49,459 nt of DNA, taken from the NCBI GenBank assembly GCA_045597205.1, contig JAZODT010000073.1, positions 1-49,459 on the forward strand. Reading direction: 5' to 3'. Below, in pieces: positions 5,523 through 37,831 of the stretch (the first letter of the stretch is position 1; each line of letters begins with the position of its first letter). The DNA is from Clostridia bacterium (lineage in GTDB: Bacteria > Bacillota > Clostridia > UBA1381 > UBA9506). Both the position numbers and the translations under genes were made by a program. The notes under the pieces were generated by a model. It was not told where the DNA came from and did not search any database. It saw only the letters and a list, made by a program, of their open reading frames with translations.

Positions 5523-5584
5523 TAACGATTACTGTAATGGCAACGTTTTTACGCTGTTTTTTGTATCCTAAAGGGGGTCAGAAC

Positions 5585-7645
5585 ATGGAAAACCAACAAT
5601 TGAAAAAACGATGCACCATTCTCTATGTTCTGGTCGTATTGTTAGCCTTAGTTGCTGTGGGGCGGCTATTTTATTTGCAGATTATTGAAGGTGCGAACTA
5701 TCGGGCTATTTCGGATAGTCGTTTGGCAAGAAACATTCCTATCAAGGCTCCCCGCGGAGAAATATTAGACCGCTATGGTCGCGCTTTGGTAACCAATCGT
5801 GAGGGTTATACGGTTGCAATTGCGAAAATTAACGATGATAAACAAGCACTCAACCAAGTGATTTTAAATATGGCCAACCTTTTTTTAGAAAAAGGATTGG
5901 CCTATGAGGATTCTTTGCCCATCAGTAAAGAAGCGCCTTTTTCTTTTCAGTTTACAGGCAATGATGAAGAAGCACAGTTAAAAGCAAAGCAAACCTTTTT
6001 ATCTGATAAAAAATATCCGGCGGATATTACACCAGAGGGTGTTCTTCAAAAATATAAACAAAAATATGCCATGAGTGATGAATATTCCCTTGAAGAATTA
6101 CGTATGATCGCCGGTGTTCGTTATGAGATGGAAAAACGTAATTTTTCTTCTAACAATGCCTATGTTTTTGCACAGGATGTGGATATTGAAACCATTACCA
6201 CCATTAAAGAAAAACGGGAACAGTTTTTTTGTGTAACGGTGTATAGCGAACCGATTCGTCAGTATGCGGGCGGTTCTTTGGCGGCACACATTTTGGGTCG
6301 TGTAGGTATCATTAATCCCGAAGAGTATGCTGAGCTGAAAGACGAAAACTATGGCATGAATGATTATTTGGGCAAAGAAGGGGCCGAAAAGGCTTTTGAA
6401 AAATATTTAAAAGGAACAGATGGAACCAACAGTATTGAGAGAAAAATCCGTGAAGGCGAAACCGAGGTTGTTTATTCCCGTGACCCTGTACCGGGTAATT
6501 CTGTTATGCTTACCATTGATATGGACCTGCAATGGACAGCAGAAAAATCTTTACAGGATAACATTCAGCGAATTGCGGCCAATAGTGCCTATGGCAGTGG
6601 TCATGATGCCTGTGCCGGTGCAGCCGTTGCAGTAGATTTAAACACCGGTGAGGTGCTGGCGATTGCATCTTATCCTACTTATGATCCTGAGCGGTTCTAT
6701 GAAGATTATAATTCTCTTTTAAATAATCCCAACCGGCCAATGTTTAACCGAGCTTTAAACGGAATTTATGAACCTGGTTCAACCTTTAAATTGTGTACGG
6801 CGTTGGCGGCGCTTGAGACAGGTGTTGTTACACCGGCAGAACAAATGAAAACCACAGGCGTTTATAATTATTTAGGCCATGACTTTATGTGCCATATCTA
6901 TCGCAGTAGCGGTGGTAACCATGGCACCATTAACATTTCACAGGCCATTCAGTATTCTTGTAACCATTTCTTTTATGAAATGGGACGACGAACCGGCATT
7001 GAAACCATTGATGAATATGCAGCCAAGTTGGGCTTGGGAGAATATACCGGTATAGAACTGGCTGGTGAGGAAAAAGGGCAAATTGCCGGGCCGGAACTGC
7101 GTGAAAAAACCGGTCGTGAGTGGTATCCCGGTGACGTACTACAGGCGGCCATTGGTCAGTCGGACAATTTATTTACTCCCTTGCAAATGGCAAATTATGT
7201 TGCAACCCTTGCCAATGGCGGCACAAATTATGAATTGCATTTGCTCAAGGCAGTTAAATCGAATACAGATAATACAATTATTTATGAAAATGAACCCAAA
7301 GTTAAAAATACAATTTCGGTTAAAGAAGAAAATATAAAAGCTGTTTTAGCCGGCATGCAATTGGCAACGTCAGAAGGTACGGCCAGTGCGGCATTTGCCG
7401 ATTTTCCTTTTAAAACGGGAGGTAAAACCGGCAGCGCACAAGTGTCTCGTGGCTCCAGTAACGGCATTTATGTTGGCTATGCTCCTTATGATAATCCTCA
7501 GATTGCTGTGGCAGTGGTGATAGAACACGGCGGCGGTGGCGGCAATGCTTCTTATATAGCCAGAGATATTTTTTGGGAGTATTTCTTTGGTGGGACAGGC
7601 ACAGAGAAGGCATCGATCACGCCGGAGAATACATGGCTGCCCTAA
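5585..7645 (+). CDS. mrdA: Penicillin-binding protein 2 (elongation transpeptidase)
   Basis: TM anchor, RGEILDRYGR dimerisation region, and transpeptidase motifs STFK, SCN (SxN) and KTGS. ATG 5585 has the RBS AAAGGGGG and is preferred over 5537. Confidence 0.9.
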   Translation: MENQQLKKRCTILYVLVVLLALVAVGRLFYLQIIEGANYRAISDSRLARNIPIKAPRGEILDRYGRALVTNREGYTVAIAKINDDKQALNQVILNMANLFLEKGLAYEDSLPISKEAPFSFQFTGNDEEAQLKAKQTFLSDKKYPADITPEGVLQKYKQKYAMSDEYSLEELRMIAGVRYEMEKRNFSSNNAYVFAQDVDIETITTIKEKREQFFCVTVYSEPIRQYAGGSLAAHILGRVGIINPEEYAELKDENYGMNDYLGKEGAEKAFEKYLKGTDGTNSIERKIREGETEVVYSRDPVPGNSVMLTIDMDLQWTAEKSLQDNIQRIAANSAYGSGHDACAGAAVAVDLNTGEVLAIASYPTYDPERFYEDYNSLLNNPNRPMFNRALNGIYEPGSTFKLCTALAALETGVVTPAEQMKTTGVYNYLGHDFMCHIYRSSGGNHGTINISQAIQYSCNHFFYEMGRRTGIETIDEYAAKLGLGEYTGIELAGEEKGQIAGPELREKTGREWYPGDVLQAAIGQSDNLFTPLQMANYVATLANGGTNYELHLLKAVKSNTDNTIIYENEPKVKNTISVKEENIKAVLAGMQLATSEGTASAAFADFPFKTGGKTGSAQVSRGSSNGIYVGYAPYDNPQIAVAVVIEHGGGGGNASYIARDIFWEYFFGGTGTEKASITPENTWLP

Positions 7646-8318: not shown

Positions 8319-10311
<1,993 letters not shown>

Positions 10312-10313
<2 letters not shown>

Positions 10314-11389: not shown

Positions 11390-12610
11390 TTGACAAACGT
11401 ATTTGATACTTTAAAAGAGCGCGGTTTGATTGCGCAGACAACACATGAAGATGAAATTAGGGAGCTTTTAGGCAAAGAAAAAGTAACCTTTTATATTGGT
11501 TTTGACCCCACGGCAGATAGTCTGCACGTTGGCCACTTTTTGCAAATGGTGGTTATGCGTCATATGCAGGATGCCGGTCACAGACCCATTGCGTTGGTGG
11601 GTGGCGGTACCGGCATGGTGGGTGACCCCTCCGGCCGTACCGATATGCGCCAAATGATGACGGTGGAAACCATTAATTATAACTGCGAGCGTTTCAAAAA
11701 GCAGCTATCTTCTATTATCGATTTTTCTAATGGTAAGGCCATAATGGTGAACAATGCTGATTGGCTTCGCGAACTGAATTATATTGAATTTTTGAGAGAT
11801 ATTGGCTCCTGCTTCTCTGTAAATGAAATGCTAAGAGCAAAATGCTTCCAGACCCGTTTGGAAAAAGGTCTTTCCTTTATTGAATTTAATTATATGTTAA
11901 TGCAGAGCTACGATTTTCTGCAGCTTTATAAGCAATATGGTTGCCAGATGGAATTAGGCGGCGACGACCAGTGGAGTAACATCTTAGGCGGTATTGATTT
12001 GGTTCGCCGTAAGGAAAACAAGCAGGTTTATGGTATGACTTTTACGTTGCTCACCACCTCAGATGGTAAAAAAATGGGCAAAACCGCTAAGGGTGCCCTG
12101 TGGCTTGACCCTGAAAAGGTTTCCCCCTACGAGTTCTACCAGTATTGGAGAAATGTGGATGATGCTGATGTTTTACGTTTGATGAAAATGGTTACCTTTG
12201 TGCCCATGGAAGAAATTCGCGAAATGGAAAAGTGGGAAGGGGCAGAGTTGAATAAAGCAAAAGTACGCCTTGCTTATGAAATTACGAAATTAGTGCACGG
12301 TGAAGAAGAAGCAACTAAAGCCAAAGCAACAGCAGAAGGTATTTTTGGAGGCGGTGCCGGCGGCGAAATGCCCACCACAGAGCTTGCTCTTTCAGAACTT
12401 TCTGATGAAATGGGATTGTTGGATATTATGCTTGCATCTAAGCTCATCCCTTCTAAGGGCGAAGGTCGTCGTTTGATTCAGCAGGGCGGTGTATCGGTGG
12501 ATGATGAAAAAGTGGCAGACCCCAACCTGATGATCGGCAAGGATAAGCTAACTGCAGGCATTGTTATTAAAAAAGGTAAAAAAGTATATCATAAAGTCAT
12601 CGCAAAATAA
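11390..12610 (+). CDS. tyrS: Tyrosine--tRNA ligase
   Basis: HVGH (HIGH) and KMGKT (KMSKS) motifs and a C-terminal S4-like domain; TTG start. Confidence 0.95.
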
Positions 12611-15503: not shown

Positions 15504-16667
15504 TTACCAACCGAAAGACAAATGTTCGTCAACTTCCTTTATTAAATTTTCAATATCATCCCCGGTTATGTGGGTATAGAAATCTATAGTTGTTTCGTAC
15601 TGCTCGTGTCCTACGATGCGCTGCAGATATTCTGGTTTAGAATCGTTTTTAACCATCTCAGAAATAAATGTATGACGGGTGGAATGCGGTGTTAAGCGAG
15701 GCGGTTTCGCGTTTTTCTCCAAAATCTTGATTTCTTCCAAAAAAGGATAAAAATACCTGTTTCTGAAATTATCAACATCCATCTTATTGCCGCGTTGGTT
15801 GCACAACAGGCATTTTCGGTTTTTGTTTTCTTCCATCCAAACGATTATGAACGGCAGAACATCTTTGTGTATAGGGATGATTCGCTCTTTGCCCGCATCG
15901 GTTTTAGAACCGCCGACCATGTATCGTTTATCTATATGAACGTTTTCAATTTCCATGGAAAATAACTCGTTGATTCTTACCCCAGTATATATCAGAACCA
16001 ATATAATTTGCGCTGTTCTATTGTCGCTATTCTTCCATAATAATGCAATTTCGTCTTTTTTAAATATCTCTTTTTCTTTATTTGTTTCTTCCGGCAGAAC
16101 AACAAACTGAGCATAGTCCTTATTGATAATATCGTCCTGCATAGCTTGCTTGCAGATTTTACTGGCGACAATCTTAATTTTCTTGCAGGTTGAAAGCCCC
16201 TTACCGCTTTCCCGGGCACTGTCGATAGCGGCTTGTATATGCTGGCTGGTAATCGATCTCATTTTAATCTGGCTGTAAGGCTCTAAATATAACCATGCGG
16301 CCCGGTATGAATTCTCTGTCGATTTGTCGATTTTCTTGTAATGCTTATCAGACCATGCGTCATAAACCTCTTTAATTGTTAGGTTATAACCATCCGGGAT
16401 CGGGCTGATTCTAGCGGCGTCCAGCGCATTTATAGCTTCCGTTCTGGTGGCATAATAGCCAATGATCGTCTTTGTCTGCTCAAAATTTACTGTTTTTGAG
16501 ATAGTGGCAACATACGGCCTACGGCGCCGGCCCGAAAGCTTGTATACTGTTCCGGTACCGTTAGCGCGTTTTAAGGCCTTTCTGGTTTCTTTTATTTGTT
16601 TTTTTCCGCAGTGTTGACAAAAAAGGCTGTCCTCTGCAATTTCCTTGTGACATTTTATGCATATCAT
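15504..16667 (-). CDS. int: Tyrosine-type site-specific integrase with N-terminal zinc ribbon
   Basis: CIKCHKEIAEDSLFCQHCGKK at the N-terminus; catalytic R (TGVRINEL), HSTRHTF and GHEQYETTIDFYTH (R-H-R-Y). Confidence 0.95.
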   Translation of the reverse strand: MICIKCHKEIAEDSLFCQHCGKKQIKETRKALKRANGTGTVYKLSGRRRRPYVATISKTVNFEQTKTIIGYYATRTEAINALDAARISPIPDGYNLTIKEVYDAWSDKHYKKIDKSTENSYRAAWLYLEPYSQIKMRSITSQHIQAAIDSARESGKGLSTCKKIKIVASKICKQAMQDDIINKDYAQFVVLPEETNKEKEIFKKDEIALLWKNSDNRTAQIILVLIYTGVRINELFSMEIENVHIDKRYMVGGSKTDAGKERIIPIHKDVLPFIIVWMEENKNRKCLLCNQRGNKMDVDNFRNRYFYPFLEEIKILEKNAKPPRLTPHSTRHTFISEMVKNDSKPEYLQRIVGHEQYETTIDFYTHITGDDIENLIKEVDEHLSFGW

Positions 16668-22087: not shown

Positions 22088-23108
22088 GCAAGGTACCCTT
22101 GATTGGGAACGAGCCAGAGAGACCCGCATTGGCAGCAGTGAAGTGTTTGACATTGTAAAGTACTATGCCACAGATAACGAACTGCAGTATTGCGGTTTTA
22201 ACCCGGAAGCCTTTCGGGCAGAGAAACCTTATACCACCGTGTGGGCACTTTACCACAAAATGTTGGGTGATGGCTTCTATAAAAGAGAGGCTTTACCCCC
22301 AGAGTTTTCAGAATACGGACACGCCGTAGAACCATACGGCGTGCGTGCTCTGCAGAAAGGCCGGCAGAAGAAGCTCAAGCCGGGGCCGGTATATGCCAAT
22401 GACAGGCTGATTGCGAGTTTAGACATCGAAGGCATTGCTGAGGCGGTGGATGTGGTGCCCTTCCATTATGGGAAGGGTACACCGAAAATAGGGCAGCGGT
22501 TTGTGTGTGAGCAGAAATCTATGCTGCCCGCCGTTGTGAAAAACGGCCTGCCGTTTAAATATATCCTGCAGGCACAGTATCAGCTTATGCAGACGAAAGC
22601 AGACTTTTTTATCCTGCAGCTGATGGTATTAAAGGATGACACGGTGTTTAACCGGGGAAAGATATGCCAGATGTCAAACAGGTCGCGGTATACCTATTTA
22701 GAAGACAAAGTGATTGTGTCCCATTATTATTTTCAGAGCAACGAACATTTATCAAAACTCATTGAAAAATGCCTTGGTTTGTTTTTTAAGGACGTGGATA
22801 ACAGAAAAGAGCCTACACCGTTTATAGAGTATGACAGCGCGAAAAATATTATTGAAAGCATCCGGCTGAACGCTTTATACAACGACAAGATGACACTTCC
22901 TTTTGATTTGGCAGCGTATCGGCAGGCCAAGGAAGAAGAGGAACAGGCTATTAATCGGCGGAAAGCAATTCTGCAGAGTATTGTGGAGCTTGCCAAAGAA
23001 AGCAACGCCTGCCGGTTTCGTTCAGAGGACGGTACAACGGCAGCCTTTGCAAAGGACGGCAGCTTCAGGATGAGACTTCCGGCAGAGGAGGTGGCGGTAT
23101 GCAATTAA
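22068..23108 (+). CDS. YqaJ-like (lambda Exo-type) recombination exonuclease
   Basis: N-terminus KQGTLDWERARETRIGSSEV is typical of the YqaJ family. ATG 22068 lies 7 nt after GGAGGG. Confidence 0.7.
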   Translation: MKRTKLKQGTLDWERARETRIGSSEVFDIVKYYATDNELQYCGFNPEAFRAEKPYTTVWALYHKMLGDGFYKREALPPEFSEYGHAVEPYGVRALQKGRQKKLKPGPVYANDRLIASLDIEGIAEAVDVVPFHYGKGTPKIGQRFVCEQKSMLPAVVKNGLPFKYILQAQYQLMQTKADFFILQLMVLKDDTVFNRGKICQMSNRSRYTYLEDKVIVSHYYFQSNEHLSKLIEKCLGLFFKDVDNRKEPTPFIEYDSAKNIIESIRLNALYNDKMTLPFDLAAYRQAKEEEEQAINRRKAILQSIVELAKESNACRFRSEDGTTAAFAKDGSFRMRLPAEEVAVCN

Positions 23109-24658
23109 GACCTTATCAAGACCAAGCGGTGACCCATGCCACGGATATGCTTTCTGAACGTGGCAATTCTTTAATCGTAGCCGGTACCGGTGCAGGAAAG
23201 ACCATTATGCTGGCGGCGGTGATTGGTCGATTCTTTAACGGATTTCGTGCTATTCATAAAAGAAGTCCGCACATTTTGGTGCTTGTGCACAGAGAAGAGA
23301 TTCACAATCAGAATCACAAGAAGTTTTCTTTGGTGTGCCCCAACATTTCCACTTCCGAAATTACTGCTGTGCGGAAAAGCCTTCACGGCAACGTGCATTT
23401 CGGCATGGTGCAGACAGTGGGCAATTTGCTTCACGAGTTTGCAAAAGCCGGCAGTTATTTCGATTTAATTGTTATTGACGAGGCGCATCATGCTGCAGCT
23501 TCTACCTATGAAGAAATTATTAAGTGGAACAAAGCAGGCAAGCCTGATGCGGCATTATTAGGCGTGACGGCTACACCCAACCGAGGCGACAAACTACCGC
23601 TGATACATCTGTTTGATAACTATTATCAGATCAGCGTGAAATTTTTAATTGAAAGTCATTATTTGGTGCGGCCTGCCTTTTTGGATTTGTCTCCGGTGTT
23701 TAACATTGGCGATAAGTCAGAAACCGGCCATCTTGCCAAAAACTGCAAGGATGATGTGGAAGGACGTGCTATGATAGATAATCTGTGTGATTTCTTTTTA
23801 GAAAGGAAAGAACCGGGAAAGAGCATTATCTTTGCGCCAAACCACGAATTTTGCGAAAGGATCTATGACCGGCTTAAAAGCTCCGGGAGAAATCCGGCTT
23901 ATTTGGGATTGGGTCTTGATGATGCTTCCAGGAAAGCGGAGCTTGACCGGTTCGAAAACGGCGAATGCGAAGAGCTGATTAATGTGGATATCTGCACGGA
24001 AGGCTATGATTACCCCGACCTTCGCAACCTTGTTGATTTTGACACCAACGGTACCCATGGGCAATGGGTGCAGAAGGTTGGCCGGGTTCTTCGCACAGCG
24101 CCAGGGAAAGCATCCTGCACCGTTATCGATTTTGGCGGGAATGTGGCCTTATATCCTGACGGCATTGAAACAGATGTAGCCTTAGAGGGTGCGGTTAAAA
24201 AAGAAAAAGGCCAGAAGCTCATGGAGCGGGATCTGTTTAAAAACGGTACCGAAAAAGTTACAGCCCAAGTGATTGATGAAACAGATGAGACGTTTACACC
24301 GTACCATCTGCCACCGGGGTTTGAGACTGTTAATGATGCAGATTATGGGATTGTGTTTGTCTCCTGCGGAGAAAAAAAGGATTGCATTATCGTGCCGGAT
24401 GGAGATGCTTTCATATTATATCGAGGGAATAAAAAAGAGCTTCGCCAGAGTATGCGTGCTGATTTTAATGCCTGCATGGGAACGGCGGTTCTTTGCAGCG
24501 ACGCCCCGCCTGCAAGCGGGAGGATCATCAGTAACCTGCAGATTAAAATGTTGGCGCCGGAATATCCTACTTCTGCTCTGACATGGGAAGGTGCCAACTG
24601 CTGCATTTGCTGGAAGACATGGAAGAGTGTTATTTCATCGGATGGTGCAGGCTTATGA
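23099..24658 (+). CDS. SF2 DEAD/DEAH-box helicase
   Basis: Walker A AGTGAGKT, motif II VIDEAHH, GVTATP, and a later TEGYDYP..L helicase C region. Confidence 0.88.
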   Translation: MQLRPYQDQAVTHATDMLSERGNSLIVAGTGAGKTIMLAAVIGRFFNGFRAIHKRSPHILVLVHREEIHNQNHKKFSLVCPNISTSEITAVRKSLHGNVHFGMVQTVGNLLHEFAKAGSYFDLIVIDEAHHAAASTYEEIIKWNKAGKPDAALLGVTATPNRGDKLPLIHLFDNYYQISVKFLIESHYLVRPAFLDLSPVFNIGDKSETGHLAKNCKDDVEGRAMIDNLCDFFLERKEPGKSIIFAPNHEFCERIYDRLKSSGRNPAYLGLGLDDASRKAELDRFENGECEELINVDICTEGYDYPDLRNLVDFDTNGTHGQWVQKVGRVLRTAPGKASCTVIDFGGNVALYPDGIETDVALEGAVKKEKGQKLMERDLFKNGTEKVTAQVIDETDETFTPYHLPPGFETVNDADYGIVFVSCGEKKDCIIVPDGDAFILYRGNKKELRQSMRADFNACMGTAVLCSDAPPASGRIISNLQIKMLAPEYPTSALTWEGANCCICWKTWKSVISSDGAGL

Positions 24659-31068: not shown

Positions 31069-31536
31069 GTGGTGAGTTTGGCGAATGTAGATTGGATTGC
31101 AATTAAAAATGAATATATAAGCACAAATGTAAGTTACAAAGAGTTATCTGATAAATATCCGGTTAGTAAAACAGCGATTGCCAACAGAGCAAAAAAAGAA
31201 AAATGGGTTGAACTTCGGGAAGAAAACTTGAACGCGACTTATACAAAAGTTGTACAAGAAACACAAGATAAAATTGTGAGTGCTGAGGTCGATCGTGTCA
31301 CAAAGTTATTGGAGCTGACAGACGATGTGCAGGAAAAGATAGCGATAGCATTAGGTCAGTTGAATATGTATATTGATTTGTCCGGCAAAGCGCAGCGATG
31401 TGACATGATTGATGTGAGCAGGCTCAAAAAACTTGTGGCAGCTCTGAAGGATGTGAAGGAAATTGTGCGGATTGATAATCAGAATGATATTGACAAGCTG
31501 GATGCGGTGCTTGCAAAAATTGAGGGCAACATATGA
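31069..31536 (+). CDS. terS: Terminase small subunit
   Basis: N-terminal HTH-like sequence WIAIKNEYISTNVSYKELSDKYPVSKTAIANRAKKEKW; lies directly upstream of and overlapping terL. Confidence 0.75.
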   Translation: MVSLANVDWIAIKNEYISTNVSYKELSDKYPVSKTAIANRAKKEKWVELREENLNATYTKVVQETQDKIVSAEVDRVTKLLELTDDVQEKIAIALGQLNMYIDLSGKAQRCDMIDVSRLKKLVAALKDVKEIVRIDNQNDIDKLDAVLAKIEGNI

Positions 31537-32750
31537 CGGGCTTTTCCAAAAAACAACAGGAATATTTGAATAATGCAACGCGGAGATGGAATATCAAATC
31601 CGGTGCCACGAGAAGCGGGAAAACTTATCTTGATTATTTTGTTATCCCGAAGCGCATCAGAAGAGTTAAGGACTTGGACGGCCTTGTTGTTTTGCTGGGG
31701 AATACAAAAGGGACATTGCAACGAAATATCATTGACCCTCTTCAAAAGCTCTGGGGGGAGCGCTATGTTACGGAAATCAGCTCGGATAACACGGCCTATA
31801 TGTTTGGTGAGAAGGTTTATTGCCTTGGTGCTGATAAAATAAATCAGGTAGACAAGATAAGAGGATCCTCTATCAAATACTGTTATGGAGATGAGGTCGT
31901 AACCTGGCATAAAGAAGTTTTCGATATGCTGAAATCCCGCTTGGATAAAGACTACAGTAAATTTGATGGAACGTGCAACCCTGATAATCCTCAGCATTGG
32001 TTCAAGCAGTTTCTTAATAACGAAAACGGCGTGGACCTTTATCTGCAGGAATACACCATTGATGACAATCCGTTCCTGCCACTTTCAGTGAAAGAAAACT
32101 TAAAGCGGGAATATTTCGGCACAGTTCTTTATGACCGTTATATCCTTGGGAAATGGGTTAATGCACAAGGCCTTATTTATCCGCTTTTGGCGGATAATCC
32201 TGCACGATACACAATCGGTAAATCGCAATTAGGCAATATGTATGATTACAGTATAGGTATAGATTTCGGCGGCAATAAATCAGGGCACGCTATGGTGCTG
32301 AGCTCCATAGGACGGTCAAACAACCTTTTATTCCTTAAATCCGATTATCGGAAGGCGACCGGTACCAGAGCGGAAGATGTTGTATCGTGGTGCGTTGAAC
32401 AACCGGAGAAGTATTATAAAGAATATCCGTACCTATATTCGATTTATCCCGATAGTGCTGAACAGCTTCTGATTAACTCTATTGCGGCCAGGTCTCGCTT
32501 CAATGTATATAATAGTCTTAAGAAACCCATTATTGACCGTGTTCGTTGCATGCAGACATTGTTGGCAAACGATAGAGTGAAGTTTGTTGACGGCGAATGT
32601 GATGAACTGATAAAGGCGTTTTCAGAAGCTTTGTGGGATGATAAATCGTTGGTCGATAAACGCCTGGATAATGGTACTTTTAATAACGACATTATTGACG
32701 CTGCAGAATACAGCTTTGAATATAATCTTGATAGGTTGGTGAATTTTTGA
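31533..32750 (+). CDS. terL: Terminase large subunit (PBSX-like)
   Basis: Walker A GATRSGKT; nuclease-region acidic residues (DFGG.., YPDSAE); 405 aa. Confidence 0.92.
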   Translation: MTGFSKKQQEYLNNATRRWNIKSGATRSGKTYLDYFVIPKRIRRVKDLDGLVVLLGNTKGTLQRNIIDPLQKLWGERYVTEISSDNTAYMFGEKVYCLGADKINQVDKIRGSSIKYCYGDEVVTWHKEVFDMLKSRLDKDYSKFDGTCNPDNPQHWFKQFLNNENGVDLYLQEYTIDDNPFLPLSVKENLKREYFGTVLYDRYILGKWVNAQGLIYPLLADNPARYTIGKSQLGNMYDYSIGIDFGGNKSGHAMVLSSIGRSNNLLFLKSDYRKATGTRAEDVVSWCVEQPEKYYKEYPYLYSIYPDSAEQLLINSIAARSRFNVYNSLKKPIIDRVRCMQTLLANDRVKFVDGECDELIKAFSEALWDDKSLVDKRLDNGTFNNDIIDAAEYSFEYNLDRLVNF

Positions 32751-34060
32751 TGTGGAAGAATATATGGCAATGGGTTTTAAAGCAACTCGGAATTAAAAAA
32801 TCCAAAACGACAGAAAAACAACTGGATGAAAATGTTAAAAATGCTATGGATTACTCTTCGACAGAAGGATATAATTTCAATGCTATTTTTTCAAATCGGC
32901 TGGCAAGCCTGGCCACATCCGATAGCGATTTTGTTCTGGAGAAGGATAACAAGCGCGGAGAGCTACTTTGCGACGCAGGCAATGCCGTATGGCAAAATAA
33001 AAAGAAAATCGTAGCAACTGCTTTAGGTACCGGAGGATGTCTGATCGTTCCATATGTTCAAAACGGAGCCATTCAATCCGATATGGCATCCCAGGACAGG
33101 TTTTGCATTCATGCGAAACAGGGTGAAAAGATTACCCATGCTACCGTGTTGGCGGACAGCATTGTTTTAAATCGTATCCGCTACTACCGGTTTGTGGACT
33201 ATAAGGTTGAAAACGGCACTCTTTCGATTATAAACAAAGTGGTAACCGAGAATGGTCGGCCGGCCGCGGTGGAGCAGTGGCAGGATATTCAGGATATGAC
33301 CATTGCCAATGTTGACAGGGTGCCGTTCGGCTTTATAAAATCTCCCATTGATAACCGGCGTTGTACGGATGATTATGGCGTGCCGGTTACATACGGTTGC
33401 GAAACAATTATCCGCGAAATTATCACCTGCCTTAAGCAAATTGAGGACGAATTTGATATGAAAGAGGTTCGTCTTCAGCTGGATGCACGTGCCTTTGACA
33501 GAGACAAAGACGGCAAGCCGGTTTTGAAAAGTAAGTTGTTCATGAAAGGTCACAATGTCAACAATGAAAATATGTTTAATATTTTTGACCCGGCAATTCG
33601 CGAAAGCAGTTATTATGCCCGACTGAATAATTTGTTTGAGCTATTGGAGAAAACAATTGGAACAAGCCGGGGCATTTTGACAAAGGCAGAGGCAACCTAT
33701 GAAAATCTGGAGGCCATCCGGGCGGCGAACCGTGATACCTGGTCATTGGTTTCCGATATCCGTGAGGCTATAGAAAAAGGGTTTAAGGATTTCCTGTACG
33801 CCTGTGACGTTCTGGCGAATTGTTATAATCTCACCCCGCCAGGTGATTATACCTATTCTTTCGATTGGGACTATTCCGTTATTGAGCGCACAGCAGATAC
33901 CTGGCAACAGCTTAAGGACGGTCAGTCTATCGGTATCAGGAGTAAAGCCGAGCTCCGAGCCTGGCAGACAGGCGAAAGCATAGAAGATGCGCAGAAGGCA
34001 ATTGATGAAATTGCGAAGAGAGAGCCGAACGTGCAGACGCTTATGGGAATGAGTGAGTGA
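32747..34060 (+). CDS. Portal protein
   Basis: 437 aa, immediately after terL and before the MuF-like gene. The call rests on size and position. Confidence 0.8.
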   Translation: MMWKNIWQWVLKQLGIKKSKTTEKQLDENVKNAMDYSSTEGYNFNAIFSNRLASLATSDSDFVLEKDNKRGELLCDAGNAVWQNKKKIVATALGTGGCLIVPYVQNGAIQSDMASQDRFCIHAKQGEKITHATVLADSIVLNRIRYYRFVDYKVENGTLSIINKVVTENGRPAAVEQWQDIQDMTIANVDRVPFGFIKSPIDNRRCTDDYGVPVTYGCETIIREIITCLKQIEDEFDMKEVRLQLDARAFDRDKDGKPVLKSKLFMKGHNVNNENMFNIFDPAIRESSYYARLNNLFELLEKTIGTSRGILTKAEATYENLEAIRAANRDTWSLVSDIREAIEKGFKDFLYACDVLANCYNLTPPGDYTYSFDWDYSVIERTADTWQQLKDGQSIGIRSKAELRAWQTGESIEDAQKAIDEIAKREPNVQTLMGMSE

Positions 34061-35819
34061 CATGCTTACAGAACATCAAATTAATATGTTGCCGGAACGG
34101 ATTGCACAGCGTTTACAGCGGATCAATACGGAATATTTAGAAAGCGTAGGCAGAGTTCTAAAGGAAATCGGCGAGCTTCGCCCAAGTGATGTGCATAGGC
34201 TGCAACAACTATATAACTACGGTGCTGACCTGCAGCGTATCACCTATAAGCTGGCCGAGGCGAGTAATAAAAACGTTCAGGATATTTATGACATCTTCGA
34301 TGTGGTTGCCAAAGAAAATTATAGTTATTCGCAGCCGTTCTATAAAGCGACTGGGAAGGCCTTTATTCCCTATGAGGACAACGAGGACCTGCAGCGATAT
34401 GTTCAATCCTTGGCCAAGCAGACAGCCGGTGAATATGTTAATTTAACACAGCATACGGCTTTTGCGGTGTTTGATAGTACCGGCAAGCACATTGCGCCAC
34501 TTTATGAGGCAGACAAAATTAAAGCGGCGACAACTCTTTCTGATACATATACACAGATAGTTGATTATGCAGTGACAAAAGCGCAGCTGGGAGGGGACGG
34601 ATACCAAAAGGCGGTTCAGGATGTGTGCCGCGCTATGGTGCATAGCGGGATTAAAACGGTTGATTATGCCACAGGGTATAAAAGGCGGCTAGAATCCGCC
34701 GTGAGGCAGAATGTGCTTTGGGGCATCAAACAATGCAACCAGAACACAGCAGACATGATAGGCGAGGATTTTGGGGCCGATGGCTACGAAATCAGTTATC
34801 ACTCCAACCCGAGACCGAGCCACGCGGATATGGCAGGTAAGATATATGCTATCGGCCGGGCGCGAACGGTAAACGGTATTTATTATCCGTCCTTTTCTGA
34901 TGTGGCGCATCTTTTGGAAGAATACGGTTGCCTGCACTTTAAATTTTCGGTGCTATTGGGAATTTCTGAACCGGCTTACACCAGAGAGCAGCTGGAGGAA
35001 CTAAAAGCACAGGATGGGCAGATGTTCGACTTCGAAGGTGAAACATATACAAGGCAAAAGGGGAAGGAGCTACAGGGCAGATTGGAAAGCGCCATGGTGC
35101 AGCAGAAGGAGCTTGCTACTATGGCAGAGGCAGCAGGGGATGAAGAGCTCAGGTGTGAGGCGCAGGGGAAATTAAATCTCTTATCGGGCAAATATGCCAG
35201 ACTTTCCAAGGAATCGGGTTTGCCGACTAAGACGGAGAGGATGAAGGCGGCAACAGTGAAAGGCCTTGACAAACCTGGAAATAGTGGTATAATAAAAGAA
35301 GATAAGTTAGGAACAGAATTATGGACAGAAGAAAAACGCATAAAGATTAGGCAAACCGAAAAGATTCTTTCAGGAAATAAATATGAAACAGCTGTTGTTT
35401 ATGACGAAAATGGAGATGTCGTATTCAAGAAAAAAGGGGATTCCAGTTCCGTCAAATTTACGAAAATTGAGATTAAACAAATGAAGGGTAAGGTTGTGAC
35501 GCATAACCATCCCAACGACTCTTGTTTTTCAAGTGCCGATATCGATATGCTTAGAAAAGCAAAAGTGTGTGAATTGAGAGCGGCCGCAAGTGATGGTACA
35601 TATGTCCTGCGATACAGCGGAACATGGAATAATAACTATAATTCCTTAGCGAAAATCAAGGATAGATATTATGAGATTGACGAGGAAATCTCAAAAGGAT
35701 ATGCAGAGATTGCGGCGCGGGAAGGCAAGACGATTTTTGACTACGATAGAGAAATACAAGAAAAAACTATTGCTAAATTAAGCAAAGAAATAGGCATTGT
35801 TTTCAGCAAGGAGAATTGA
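34053..35819 (+). CDS. Minor capsid / head morphogenesis protein (MuF/SPP1 gp7-like) with C-terminal JAB/RadC-like extension
   Basis: The N-terminal ~400 aa follow the portal gene, as MuF/minor-capsid-protein-2 genes do. The C-terminal ~165 aa contain YETAVVYDENG...VVTHNHPNDSCFSSADI. Confidence 0.75.
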   Translation: MSDMLTEHQINMLPERIAQRLQRINTEYLESVGRVLKEIGELRPSDVHRLQQLYNYGADLQRITYKLAEASNKNVQDIYDIFDVVAKENYSYSQPFYKATGKAFIPYEDNEDLQRYVQSLAKQTAGEYVNLTQHTAFAVFDSTGKHIAPLYEADKIKAATTLSDTYTQIVDYAVTKAQLGGDGYQKAVQDVCRAMVHSGIKTVDYATGYKRRLESAVRQNVLWGIKQCNQNTADMIGEDFGADGYEISYHSNPRPSHADMAGKIYAIGRARTVNGIYYPSFSDVAHLLEEYGCLHFKFSVLLGISEPAYTREQLEELKAQDGQMFDFEGETYTRQKGKELQGRLESAMVQQKELATMAEAAGDEELRCEAQGKLNLLSGKYARLSKESGLPTKTERMKAATVKGLDKPGNSGIIKEDKLGTELWTEEKRIKIRQTEKILSGNKYETAVVYDENGDVVFKKKGDSSSVKFTKIEIKQMKGKVVTHNHPNDSCFSSADIDMLRKAKVCELRAAASDGTYVLRYSGTWNNNYNSLAKIKDRYYEIDEEISKGYAEIAAREGKTIFDYDREIQEKTIAKLSKEIGIVFSKEN

Positions 35820-35820
35820 T

Positions 35821-35964
35821 ATGCGAGAAAGAGAGAATGAAATTAATATATCTGATATACCGGACAACAAAGGGATTGATGATTATCCTGATGATACTAT
35901 TTTTGTATTTGACGACAAACCAGTAAAAAGAGACCCGAATACCGGGCTAGTTATTCGAGAGTAA
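35821..35964 (+). CDS. Small acidic hypothetical protein (47 aa)
   Basis: The ATG is adjacent to the MuF stop (TGATATG). It is followed by two terminators and is not in the ORF track. Confidence 0.35.
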   Translation: MRERENEINISDIPDNKGIDDYPDDTIFVFDDKPVKRDPNTGLVIRE

Positions 35965-36007: not shown

Positions 36008-36040
36008 AAAAAAGGGATTGCTTCGTGCAGTCCCTTTTCT
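36008..36040 (+). terminator. Intrinsic terminator 1 inside the head module
   Basis: A6, then GGGATTGC/GCAGTCCC (8 bp, one G-U), then TTTTCT. Confidence 0.6.
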
Positions 36041-36062
36041 AATATCAAATTTAATAATTAAG

Positions 36063-36091
36063 GCATTATGCGTTTGCATAGTGCTTTTTTT
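36063..36091 (+). terminator. Intrinsic terminator 2 inside the head module
   Basis: GCATTATGC/GCATAGTGC (9 bp, one G-U), GTTT loop, then T7. Confidence 0.65.
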
Positions 36092-36173
36092 ATACTCAAA
36101 ATTGGGCGGAATCCCGAAAAACTATCAATCCGGTGCGGAAAGAAACCGCGAGAACAAACTGAAAGGAGATATT

Positions 36174-36746
36174 ATGACAAGAGAGGAACTGAAAGGCATT
36201 ATTGAGGGTATTACCGATGAACAGCTCAAATCCATTCTGGATATTAACACGGCGGACATCGGCAAAGCAAAGGGCGATTTTGCCAAGATTAAGGCTGAAA
36301 ATGATGCCCTGAAGGCTAGTGAGCAGGAGCTCAAAAGCAAAATTGCCGAACTGAGTGAAAAGTCGGGCACAGCTGACGACTATAAAAAGCAGCTGGAGGA
36401 TTTAAAGGCAGAGATTTCGGCCAAAGAAGAGGCGGCGAAAGCTGCAGCTGAGGACAAGGCTCTGACCGAGGCGATTGAGGCTGTATTTGGCGATAAACAA
36501 TTCACTTCCGATTATGTTCGGCAGGGATTAATTGCTGATATGAAGACTGAGATTGCTAAGGGTGAGAACAAAGGCAAGGGCTACAGCGAAATCTTTGACG
36601 CTTTAACCAAGGACAAGGAAGGTCTGTTTGCTAATCCAAACCCGCCGGCAGATATGACGGGGCTTGGAGGTGTAGATAAACCGAGTGAACTTGAAAATTT
36701 AGACATGGCAGATTATATTGCTGCCAGACAGAAAATGAAAGGATGA
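36174..36746 (+). CDS. Scaffolding protein
   Basis: ATG 36174 after GAAAGGAG. Alanine/glutamate-rich coiled coil; lies directly upstream of the capsid gene. Confidence 0.75.
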   Translation: MTREELKGIIEGITDEQLKSILDINTADIGKAKGDFAKIKAENDALKASEQELKSKIAELSEKSGTADDYKKQLEDLKAEISAKEEAAKAAAEDKALTEAIEAVFGDKQFTSDYVRQGLIADMKTEIAKGENKGKGYSEIFDALTKDKEGLFANPNPPADMTGLGGVDKPSELENLDMADYIAARQKMKG

Positions 36747-36752
36747 TGAATT

Positions 36753-37616
36753 ATGGCTAATACAATTTTAACACCTTCTATTATTGCAAAAGAAGCTTTG
36801 ATGGTGCTTCGAAACAACGCTGTGATGGCAAATTTGGTACATCGTGACTTCTCTGATGAGTTTGTCCCCGGTGTTGGTGATGAAATTTCAATCAGAAAGC
36901 CGGCCCAGTTTGAGGCTAAGGAGTTCAACGGAACCAGTATTGATGTTCAGGATGCAACAGAAAACAGCATTACCGTTACAATGGATAAGCACCTGGATGT
37001 ATCCTTTGCTGTTACATCCAAGCAGATGGCTATGGATATTGCAGACTTTTCTGCTCAGTTTTTAGTTCCTGCTATGCAGGCTTTTTCTGATAAGATTGAT
37101 AAGTGTATTCTTGGTCTTGCGACAGACATAACCAATCGTGTTTCAGCAACCGGTTCTGTGCAGAATGATGTTGTTGACGCGAGAGCCTTTTTCACTAAAA
37201 ATGCGGCGCCTCTTACCCAGCGTAACCTTGTTTACGGCTCCGACATGGAAACAAAGCTTTTGAAAACCGACCTCTTTACTCATGCAGATAAGGTCGGCGA
37301 TGAAGGCACGGCTCTGCGTGAAGCGTCTATTGGCAGAAAGTATGGTATGGATTTTTATGTTGACCAGAATGTGGATGGCGGAAACATTGATGGTATTGCC
37401 TTCCACAAAAATGCATTTGCTCTTGTTACCAGACCCTTGGAACAGCCGCAGGGTGCAGCAAAATCCGCCATTATGAGCTATGACGGTTTTGGCCTTCGTG
37501 TTGTATATGATTATGATATCAATACAAAGAAAGACACCATTTCCATTGATATGCTTTGCGGTTTCAAAACGTTAGATGCAAGACTTGCATCTGTCATCGA
37601 AAGTGCAGGTGTTTGA
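36753..37616 (+). CDS. Major capsid protein
   Basis: 287 aa. The N-terminus ANTILTPSIIAKEALMVLRNN is typical of coat proteins; lies after the scaffold gene. Confidence 0.8.
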   Translation: MANTILTPSIIAKEALMVLRNNAVMANLVHRDFSDEFVPGVGDEISIRKPAQFEAKEFNGTSIDVQDATENSITVTMDKHLDVSFAVTSKQMAMDIADFSAQFLVPAMQAFSDKIDKCILGLATDITNRVSATGSVQNDVVDARAFFTKNAAPLTQRNLVYGSDMETKLLKTDLFTHADKVGDEGTALREASIGRKYGMDFYVDQNVDGGNIDGIAFHKNAFALVTRPLEQPQGAAKSAIMSYDGFGLRVVYDYDINTKKDTISIDMLCGFKTLDARLASVIESAGV

Positions 37617-37618
37617 TT

Positions 37619-37831
37619 ATGTACAAAGTAATTAAGTATTTTGAAGACCTGCAGGATGGCGGTTATGCCTACGAAGAAGGGGATGTATTCCCTCGTGAGG
37701 GGTTAGAGGTCTCAGACGAAAGAATTAAAGAGCTTTCCGGCAAAAAAAATAAGCGGGGGACACCTTTAATTATCGAAAAGAAGGACCCGGGTACTCCTGA
37801 TGACGACAAAAAGGGAGACAGCGAAAAATAG
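37619..37831 (+). CDS. Small head-associated hypothetical protein
   Basis: ATG 37619 overlaps the capsid stop region; 70 aa with a basic/acidic tail. Confidence 0.5.
   Translation: MYKVIKYFEDLQDGGYAYEEGDVFPREGLEVSDERIKELSGKKNKRGTPLIIEKKDPGTPDDDKKGDSEK

Follow-up and report, generated by a model that had tools for sequence, protein, structure and literature searches.

The window analyzed here, the entire 49,459-nucleotide stretch of Clostridia bacterium contig JAZODT010000073.1, carries a prophage whose head module includes a fusion gene of 588 codons with a GTG start (34053–35819, forward strand; delimited from the open reading frame (ORF) list and the sequence). The encoded protein joins a MuF2-type minor capsid domain to a JAB-like C-terminal domain, and the gene is followed by a 47-residue acidic ORF, MRERENEINISDIPDNKGIDDYPDDTIFVFDDKPVKRDPNTGLVIRE (35821–35964, forward strand), a candidate inhibitor, immunity protein or chaperone. 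On balance, we consider it probable that the MuF2 minor head protein, its RadC-like JAB cargo and the coupled small ORF form a two-gene cassette with the architecture of MuF polymorphic effectors.

The N-terminal domain spans residues 5–383 (34065–35201, forward strand) and matches the Phage_min_cap2 profile PF06152 with an E value of 9e-54 over profile positions 1–363 of 366. The PHROG minor head protein profile phrog_581 also matches the fusion protein (E 4.7e-50, residues 4–545). PF06152 is ‘MuF2’ in the MuF superfamily, beside Phage_Mu_F (PF04233), or ‘MuF1’, and muf genes are located directly downstream of portal genes (Jamet et al., 2017; PMC5576092). Here, the last 8 nucleotides of the portal gene (32747–34060, forward strand; phrog_533, E 8.9e-49) are also the first 8 of the fusion gene. 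A preliminary description of this DNA had proposed a MuF-type minor capsid gene after the portal, and the PF06152 match together with the phrog_533 portal upstream bears this out. Three marks of the MuF family were found, namely a MuF-superfamily N-terminus, a position after the portal and a variable C-terminus. The MuF2 domain is presumed to be the capsid-targeting, portal-binding module. It is followed by a linker (residues 384–419; 35202–35309, forward strand) that ends in a conserved ‘...LPTKTERM...GNSGIIKE’ junction and whose residues 411–414 have low predicted local distance difference test (pLDDT) values in the AlphaFold2 (AF2) model.

Comparisons by AF2, Foldseek, hhalign and BFVD delimit the RadC/JAB-like domain to residues ~420–588 (35310–35816, forward strand). 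The preliminary description had set apart the last ~165 residues, starting at 35320, as a separate domain; the domain itself stood, and its start moved slightly upstream, to about residue 420 (nucleotide ~35310), where the fold begins. Modeled by AF2 on a 116-sequence alignment, the domain reaches a pLDDT of 95.6 and a predicted template modeling score of 0.90. The elements of the model are, in order, a helix, a β-hairpin, a helix, a strand ending in HNH, a helix starting with S-x-x-D and a second hairpin, while two long helices and a terminal strand at the C-terminal end are family-specific. The placement of HxH at the end of a strand and of SxxD at the start of a helix is as expected for JAMM.

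The motif in the fusion protein reads THNHPNDSCFSSADIDML. Its predicted metal-binding/catalytic residues, H484-N-H486-P...S493-x-x-D496, are encoded at 35502–35540 of the forward strand (H484 at 35502–35504, H486 at 35508–35510, S493 at 35529–35531 and D496 at 35538–35540), exactly where HNHP..S..D with an x6 spacer had been read before. The predicted catalytic glutamate, E445, lies in ‘YETAVVYD’ (35385–35387, forward strand); it is the putative JAMM glutamate by virtue of its place in the modeled topology, at the start of the first core β-strand, which begins at fragment residue 36 (protein residue number equals fragment number plus 410). In the hhalign comparison with RadC described below, it is the neighboring conserved E436 that comes opposite the RadC ‘EERE’ glutamates. 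Across the 116 homologs, H484, N485, H486, P487 and S493 are invariant, and E436, E445, D496, E507 and R509 reach a conservation of at least 90%. The glutamate, both histidines, the serine and the aspartate, whose retention the preliminary description had left as a question, are all present and are all either invariant or conserved at this level. Given these conserved catalytic-type residues, we infer that the domain is an active metal-dependent hydrolase. The spacer between H486 and S493 measures 6 residues, compared with the canonical 7, and reaches 17 in a cyanophage homolog that has an 11-residue insertion; the loop therefore tolerates length variation within the family. An HNH (ββα-Me) nuclease motif was considered and rejected, as the ‘HNH’ here is the HxH of the JAB fold according to both AF2 and Foldseek.

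A Foldseek search of the PDB placed RadC from Chlorobium tepidum (2qlc) at the top, with an E value of 5.8e-3, a probability of 1.0 and a template modeling (TM) score of 0.49–0.52 on the target. The Pyrococcus SAMP2 isopeptidase PfJAMM1 (5ld9/5lda) came next and was nearly equal (E 1.1e-2). The first seven matches have probabilities of 0.96–1.0 and TM scores of 0.43–0.52 on the target; further down are AF2198 (1oi0) and cytidine/dCMP deaminases that share the fold. Among the predicted viral structures of BFVD, the best matches are the C-termini of other ‘minor capsid proteins’, followed by proteins of iridoviruses and other nucleocytoplasmic large DNA viruses (NCLDVs), and then by phage ‘RadC-like JAB’ and ‘MPN domain’ proteins. 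At the profile level, hhalign aligned the domain to a low-diversity enterobacterial YicR/RadC profile with 86.3% probability and an E value of 4.8e-6, placing HNHP..S..D in register with HNHPSG..PS..D. Weak matches to Pfam RadC (PF04002) were found in 13 of the 116 homologs (best E 0.038), and two multi-copy giant proteins, P0143 (28.8 bits) and P0171 (23.5 bits), exceed the PF04002 gathering score of 22.1 bits. The fusion protein itself is below the PF04002 threshold, with no RadC match at E ≤ 10. It also lacks the N-terminal helix-hairpin-helix (HhH)/UPF0758 region (PF20582) of chromosomal RadC/YicR and has Phage_min_cap2 in its place. The JAMM/RadC-like character proposed earlier is thus supported by the structure search, which gives RadC 2qlc and PfJAMM1, and by hhalign, which gives RadC. 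As modeled, the domain belongs to the JAB/MPN superfamily as a divergent, RadC-like form with its catalytic-type residues intact; it is related to RadC at the profile level and lies outside Pfam RadC. Weak matches of the C-terminal fragment to ArlS_N, Mucin_bdg and phrog_5057 were dismissed as noise.

The domain is common. A profile search of a 5.8-billion-protein collection returned 275 proteins that contain it, and an exhaustive HMMER search of 1.84 billion cluster representatives gave 1,735 hits at E ≤ 1e-3, of which 305 reach E ≤ 1e-10. Its closest homologs come from gut metagenomes, uncultured Ruminococcus and a Dorea phage. The locus brings to light an abundant family of JAB-like cargo domains, with ~1,700 protein clusters, that is unannotated by current domain libraries.

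The 47-residue ORF is tightly coupled to the fusion gene. Its ATG begins 1 nucleotide past the TGA of the fusion gene, and its Shine-Dalgarno sequence, AAGGAG (35808–35813, forward strand), lies inside the 3′ end of the fusion gene, 7 nucleotides before the ATG at 35821. The predicted protein has an isoelectric point (pI) of 4.34, with 13 aspartates and glutamates versus 7 lysines and arginines. Both the spacing and the pI agree with the preliminary description, which had noted an acidic ORF abutting the stop codon. We examined 82 loci encoding the domain, 80 from IMG/VR and two from GenBank phages, and many of these have a short ORF that runs across the stop codon of the domain-bearing gene or borders on it. 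A phmmer search with the 47-residue peptide found homologs with E values down to 2.8e-7 (at a nominal database size of 1e5), some of which follow MuF1-type fusions. When 14,936 open frames from the window and all loci were searched with jackhmmer, 38 hits were obtained, one per locus and including the window ORF. All 38 lie on the same strand, at the stop codon of the domain-bearing gene, with none elsewhere among the 14,936 frames, so the earlier suggestion that the small ORF is tied to the domain holds. By profile, 41 of the 82 loci have a clear family member and 11 more are borderline.

Members of the small-ORF family share a conserved core, (K/E)-I-x-I-S-D/E-I-P-D/E-x3-4-D/E-x-Y/L-P-x-D/G-T/V-x-F/I-V/I. 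The window ORF is without the C-terminal ‘FPRY...DPRY..ALTREE’ of its nearest relatives. A single-sequence AF2 model of the 47-residue protein shows a small β structure at a pLDDT of 73, a middling confidence, and we draw no conclusion from it. The possibility that this protein is a ubiquitin-like substrate was rejected, as it is too short for a β-grasp fold and has no conserved C-terminal Gly-Gly. Directly after distant versions of the domain (in L058, L060, L062, L063, L065 and L056, L061, L064, L066), we also observed other small ORFs, namely Cys-rich (CxxC...C...H) ORFs of ~66–75 residues and acidic ORFs of 57–64 residues whose products start with ‘MDDSIxFTEEE’. This suggests that several alternative partner families occupy the position after the domain-bearing gene.

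Two terminator-like hairpins sit between the 47-residue ORF and the scaffold gene, with a folding z-score of −4.96, in keeping with the two terminators reported in the preliminary description. The first, AAAGGGA...TCCCTTT followed by TCT (36010–36038, forward strand), was found by RNA folding and is missed by a simple scan. The second, which consists of a 12-bp stem (36060–36087) and a T-run (36060–36094 in all, forward strand), was found by both a terminator scan and folding. The location of these hairpins in the late structural region suggests that the block of terminase, portal, MuF and small ORF is a separate or attenuated transcription unit.

Comparison with other phages demonstrates that the domain and the small ORF move together. 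A set of close phage relatives (L084–L087) is 70–73% identical to the window in the large terminase (TerL), 51–57% in the portal, 63–72% in the MuF N-terminus and, for L084 and L086, 69–72% in the scaffold, and neither the JAB-like domain nor the 47-residue ORF is detectable in these relatives. The fusion-type genes of L084 (3444–5237), L085 (3024–4777) and L086 (1737–3677) encode MuF proteins that are conserved up to the ‘...LPTK(T/M)ERM...SGI(I/S)K’ junction and then continue into unrelated C-termini: ‘GHTHPGIGNNCLQASPGD’ in L084, ‘IAIHNHGTNNPPTGSDF’ in L085 and a zincin-like ‘FHEHGH’ (HExxH) in L086. None of these alternative C-termini has a match in Pfam. Shared N-termini followed by unrelated C-termini are the polymorphic pattern that the preliminary description had anticipated. 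The comparison of downstream ORFs covers L084 and L086, as the L085 contig stops inside the MuF gene; both have small ORFs of their own, of 89 residues in L084 and 69 residues in L086, each differing from that of the window. The C-termini of L084 and L085 contain HxH...S/T..D-like strings, and their membership in the same family was considered and rejected, given insignificant hidden Markov model scores (≤7 bits) and no Pfam match. We treat them as different domains, which from their sequences may be other JAB variants.

More distant phages still keep the pair. Across L003–L022 and the Dorea phage DO134P1 (L001), the terminase, portal and MuF N-terminus are 23–31% identical to those of the window or undetectable, yet the domain (28–44% identity) and the small ORF are retained. 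The N-terminus of DO134P1 has the HPNCRC motif of the MuF/SPP1-gp7 type, and closely related fusions are annotated as PF04233 (MuF1); the pair of domain and small ORF is thus found downstream of both PF06152-type and PF04233-type N-termini. Because the pair is swapped out in close relatives and retained in distant phages, the domain and the small ORF are co-inherited independently of the capsid lineage. By these sequence comparisons, the domain and the 47-residue ORF make up a mobile two-gene cassette, in the manner of MuF polymorphic toxins and their immunity genes.

The domain is found in MuF fusions of ~450–650 residues, in standalone proteins of ~150–250 residues and in giant proteins. Among the larger architectures, the giant P0143 combines MuF, a DRAT-type ADP-ribosyltransferase and several copies of the domain; P0187 combines Phage_min_cap2, the domain and ADPrib_exo_Tox; P0192 a PI3/4-kinase-like domain, MuF and the domain; and P0153 InPase and the domain. 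The giants P0143, P0238, P0240 and P0153 (1,232–3,010 residues) have three to seven tandem copies of the domain, and such tandem-copy giants also contain MuF, ADP-ribosyltransferase, kinase-like or pyrophosphatase domains. Such giant homologs correspond to the ‘polyvalent proteins’ of Iyer et al. (2017). Standalone copies are located upstream of the packaging genes, outside the head module, in temperate phages (L088–L090), and among head-tail and tail genes in the structural modules of cyanophages (L002, L091–L093). The neighborhood of one standalone homolog of 190 residues (P0067) contains genes that share a leader, ‘MAKTSGGV(R/K)’ (L088, 3696–5313; L089, 3696–5301). The leader is carried by a 101-residue ORF and the JAB-like protein in L088 and by a 170-residue ORF in L089; in both L088 and L090, the counterpart of the latter gene matches CdiA_C weakly. 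From its sequence, the shared leader may be a capsid-targeting or processing signal.

SPP1 gp7 and phage Mu gpF serve as the model for a protein that enters the head by way of the portal and leaves it with the DNA. By analogy, the MuF domain would bring the fusion protein into the procapsid via the portal, and the protein would exit the capsid together with the DNA at infection. The same route would follow from the MuF literature (PMC5512222; PMC5576092). Once in the infected cell, the JAB-like domain could hydrolyze a host or nucleic-acid target by means of a metal ion, probably Zn2+. The small acidic protein would bind the domain in the producing cell and inactivate it, in the manner of an immunity protein or inhibitor, or else chaperone it; most simply, it would be an inhibitor or immunity factor that protects the producing cell. 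Being acidic, it would be well suited to mimic a nucleic-acid substrate, although this is speculation.

Several observations weigh against an effector cassette of this kind. The domain of the fusion protein has no significant match in Pfam (E ≤ 10), NCBIfam or the PDB, whether searched as a single sequence or as the 116-sequence profile, and the fold match is moderate, with Foldseek E values of ~1e-2 and TM scores of ~0.5. The YicR/RadC template used in hhalign was built from close enterobacterial relatives of E. coli YicR and is accordingly shallow, which qualifies the 86% probability. The His-to-Ser spacer is 6, not 7. On the side of the partner, 47 residues is very small for an immunity protein, and in about 30 of the 82 domain loci the gene is followed by a different small ORF or by none. 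Furthermore, the cyanophage-type standalone copies (L002 with L070 and L080; L091–L093) precede genes of 316–453 residues and no small acidic ORF. An obligatory immunity partner is therefore not universal. Finally, the size of the family (~1,700 clusters) and its wide conservation in head modules could point to a morphogenetic or DNA-handling role instead of a toxin.

This last point leads to an explanation that we regard as unlikely, in which the domain serves the virion in a housekeeping capacity, and not in conflict, as a metal-dependent protease or DNA-end enzyme for head maturation, scaffold removal or DNA ejection, with the small ORF as an assembly factor. The domain is indeed widespread in head modules and falls within the PHROG minor head profile (phrog_581, residues 4–545), a gene for a prohead protease is not apparent in the interval from the portal to the major capsid protein, and the cyanophage-type copies stand among head-tail and tail genes. 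However, relatives with head genes that are 63–73% identical are without the domain, so it is dispensable for this type of capsid, and the small ORF tracks the domain, not the capsid lineage. The association of the domain with ADP-ribosyltransferase and other effector domains in giant proteins, and its occurrence as a standalone gene outside the head module in some temperate phages, also argue against such a role. More doubtful still is a catalytically silent JAB-fold module that binds, for example, DNA or RNA and has the downstream ORF beside it by proximity only. Inactive JAB/MPN- domains and inactive RadC versions do exist (PMC3239186), and the spacer is non-canonical, but near or full invariance of all five catalytic-type positions in 116 diverse sequences argues that the active site has been retained, and the small ORF covaries with the domain across unrelated head modules and appears nowhere else among the 14,936 frames.

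The preliminary description had proposed a capsid-delivered JAB-type isopeptidase that could act at infection, for example against ubiquitin-like or CD-NTase conjugation-based defenses. In a fuller form of this proposal, a true JAMM-type isopeptidase, capsid-borne or expressed late, would strip ubiquitin-like or Cap2-type conjugates and so counter Bil or the type II cyclic oligonucleotide-based antiphage signaling system (CBASS), with the small ORF as a regulator; this, too, seems improbable to us. Ubiquitin-like conjugation by Bil is said to disturb a phage assembly step, and expression of the isopeptidase together with the structural genes would coincide with that step. The full JAMM residue set is conserved in the 116 homologs, a phage ‘MPN domain-containing protein’ is among the BFVD matches, and PfJAMM1 (5ld9/5lda) fits the model nearly as well as RadC, for which no peptidase activity is known, does (E 1.1e-2 versus 5.8e-3), so that peptidase activity is compatible with the fold. 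The strongest sequence and profile links, on the other hand, go to RadC and not to the deubiquitinase clades, and the RadC-like and toxin JAB clades are argued to have no groove for a ubiquitin-like tail (PMC5512222; PMC3482391). No ubiquitin-like or E1/E2 gene was found among the ORFs examined, and no such phage enzyme is reported in the literature searched. Close relatives swap the cassette for unrelated domains, among them a zincin-like HExxH domain, as would be expected of interchangeable effectors more than of a single dedicated counter-defense. In its broadest form, the idea would be of a virion-delivered or late JAB isopeptidase or hydrolase that disarms host immunity, with the 47-residue peptide as an inhibitor or substrate mimic released on ejection, and we hold this form to be no less unlikely. 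The cassette could also, in a second form, offer the first biochemical handle on RadC-like JAB activity, the acidic peptide then standing in for nucleic acid in the active-site groove. An anti-ubiquitin-like role is the most exciting reading, although the chances are slim.

The polymorphic effector architecture that we favor has its closest precedent in the MuF toxins. Two of these have been characterized, Apk2, a (p)ppApp synthetase, and Bxa, an ADP-ribosyltransferase, and in both cases a small adjacent immunity protein that is non-enzymatic binds the toxin (PMC11699363). Like the MuF polymorphic toxins, the window gene has a MuF2/PF06152 N-terminus, lies after the portal in a prophage, and has a C-terminus that varies behind conserved N-termini, with a small adjacent ORF that covaries. 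Its JAB/RadC-like cargo, unlike theirs, is outside the toxin domains listed in PMC5576092, which makes no mention of JAB or RadC, and its partner is only 47 residues long and acidic. The window protein would fall into the class described there as ‘C-terminal extension with unknown domain’. SPP1 gp7 and phage Mu gpF, the short MuF prototypes, share the homologous N-terminal superfamily and the post-portal position but have no enzymatic C-terminal cargo of such a type.

RadC/YicR (PF04002, 2qlc) is the top structural match, with HNHP...S..D in profile-profile register. Unlike RadC, the window domain is without the ‘SG’ and without the Pro before the Ser of HNHPSGxxxPSxxD, and its spacer is one residue shorter; moreover, it has the C-terminal two-helix-plus-strand extension and a capsid-protein fusion, and it has no HhH/UPF0758 region. 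RadC is listed by Iyer et al. (2017; PMC5512222) among the domains of polyvalent proteins, which are proposed to be delivered with the invading DNA. The window protein resembles the polyvalent proteins in having a JAB-type domain in a prophage protein thought to be injected and a predicted nucleic acid or nucleotide substrate; it differs from them in being a plain fusion of two domains, one of them MuF2, with a small partner gene of its own, and the text consulted describes neither this partner nor this subfamily specifically. More broadly, Aravind and colleagues argue that the substrates of the RadC-like and toxin JAB clades are nucleic acids or nucleotides, not ubiquitin-like tails (PMC3239186; PMC3482391; PMC5512222), and these clades are said to be without the groove that holds such a tail (PMC5512222; PMC3482391).

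According to Zhang et al. (2012; PMC3482391), Tox-JAB-1 and Tox-JAB-2 (DUF4329) are C-terminal toxin modules of polymorphic toxins, with immunity genes and predicted nuclease activity, and Tox-JAB-2 also occurs in NCLDVs, iridoviruses among them. The window domain is similarly a divergent JAB with E, HxH, S and D, and iridovirus/NCLDV proteins are among its fold matches. Pfam reported no DUF4329 match for the fusion protein, a result obtained without a direct alignment to Tox-JAB. Delivery of the window protein would be by a MuF capsid protein as opposed to RHS, the type VI secretion system or the type VII secretion system, and the immunity families of Tox-JAB are Imm65 and Imm-NTF2-2. The JAMM/MPN+ isopeptidases (Rpn11, AMSH, PfJAMM1 5ld9 and CBASS Cap3) share the fold class and the E...HxH...S..D set with the window domain, whereas the window domain has a spacer of 6 in place of 7 and is tied by sequence to RadC rather than to the deubiquitinase clades.

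Three elements are accordingly already in the literature: JAB toxin modules (2012), RadC in injected polyvalent proteins (2017) and MuF proteins with uncharacterized C-terminal extensions (2017). The preliminary description did not recognize the fusion as a characterized system, which holds at the experimental level; the class as such had been anticipated by the polyvalent RadC of prophages, the Tox-JAB toxins and the unknown extensions of MuF proteins. Our literature search did not find a description of the MuF-associated JAB subfamily, of its small acidic partner family, or of any experiment on either. MuF toxins are capsid-associated polymorphic effectors that are common in temperate phages of gut bacteria, with two types of cargo characterized. 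RadC-like JAB domains, whose biochemical activity has stayed obscure, occur throughout bacteria, phages and plasmids. The locus provides a compact two-gene system, with a conserved active site and a tiny partner, in which activity (nuclease or peptidase), inhibition and delivery by the capsid can be studied. The outcome would improve the annotation of many ‘minor capsid proteins’ and could reveal a role for a RadC-type enzyme in infection.

The remainder of the window is divided between host chromosome and prophage. Host housekeeping genes fill the left 15 kb, including those for a U32 peptidase (53–1567), a penicillin-binding protein (5537–7645), an NAD-dependent DNA ligase (8331–10313) and TyrS (11390–12610). 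Adjoining them is a tyrosine integrase gene (15504–16667, reverse strand) that marks the end of the prophage; because this integrase adjoins host housekeeping genes, the element is a prophage, and it extends from the integrase to the end of the window. The prophage is temperate and siphovirus-like. A megablast search with 10 kb around the fusion gene gave no match among GenBank phages. By PHROG profiles, the order of the head genes is small terminase (TerS, 31069–31536), TerL (31533–32750), portal, fusion gene, scaffold, major capsid protein (36753–37616) and head-tail adaptor. The scaffold gene (36171–36746, forward strand; PF06810, E 3.7e-19; phrog_194) is the next conserved head gene and constitutes the downstream edge of the variable cassette. 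Two further genes of the prophage deserve mention. One, in its early region, is a ResIII/DEAD/SNF2-type helicase gene (23099–24658). The other is a 71-residue ORF (37616–37831) between the major capsid gene and the head-tail adaptor, which matches PHROG families labeled ‘Arc-like repressor’ (E 6.5e-20), an unexpected label inside a structural operon.

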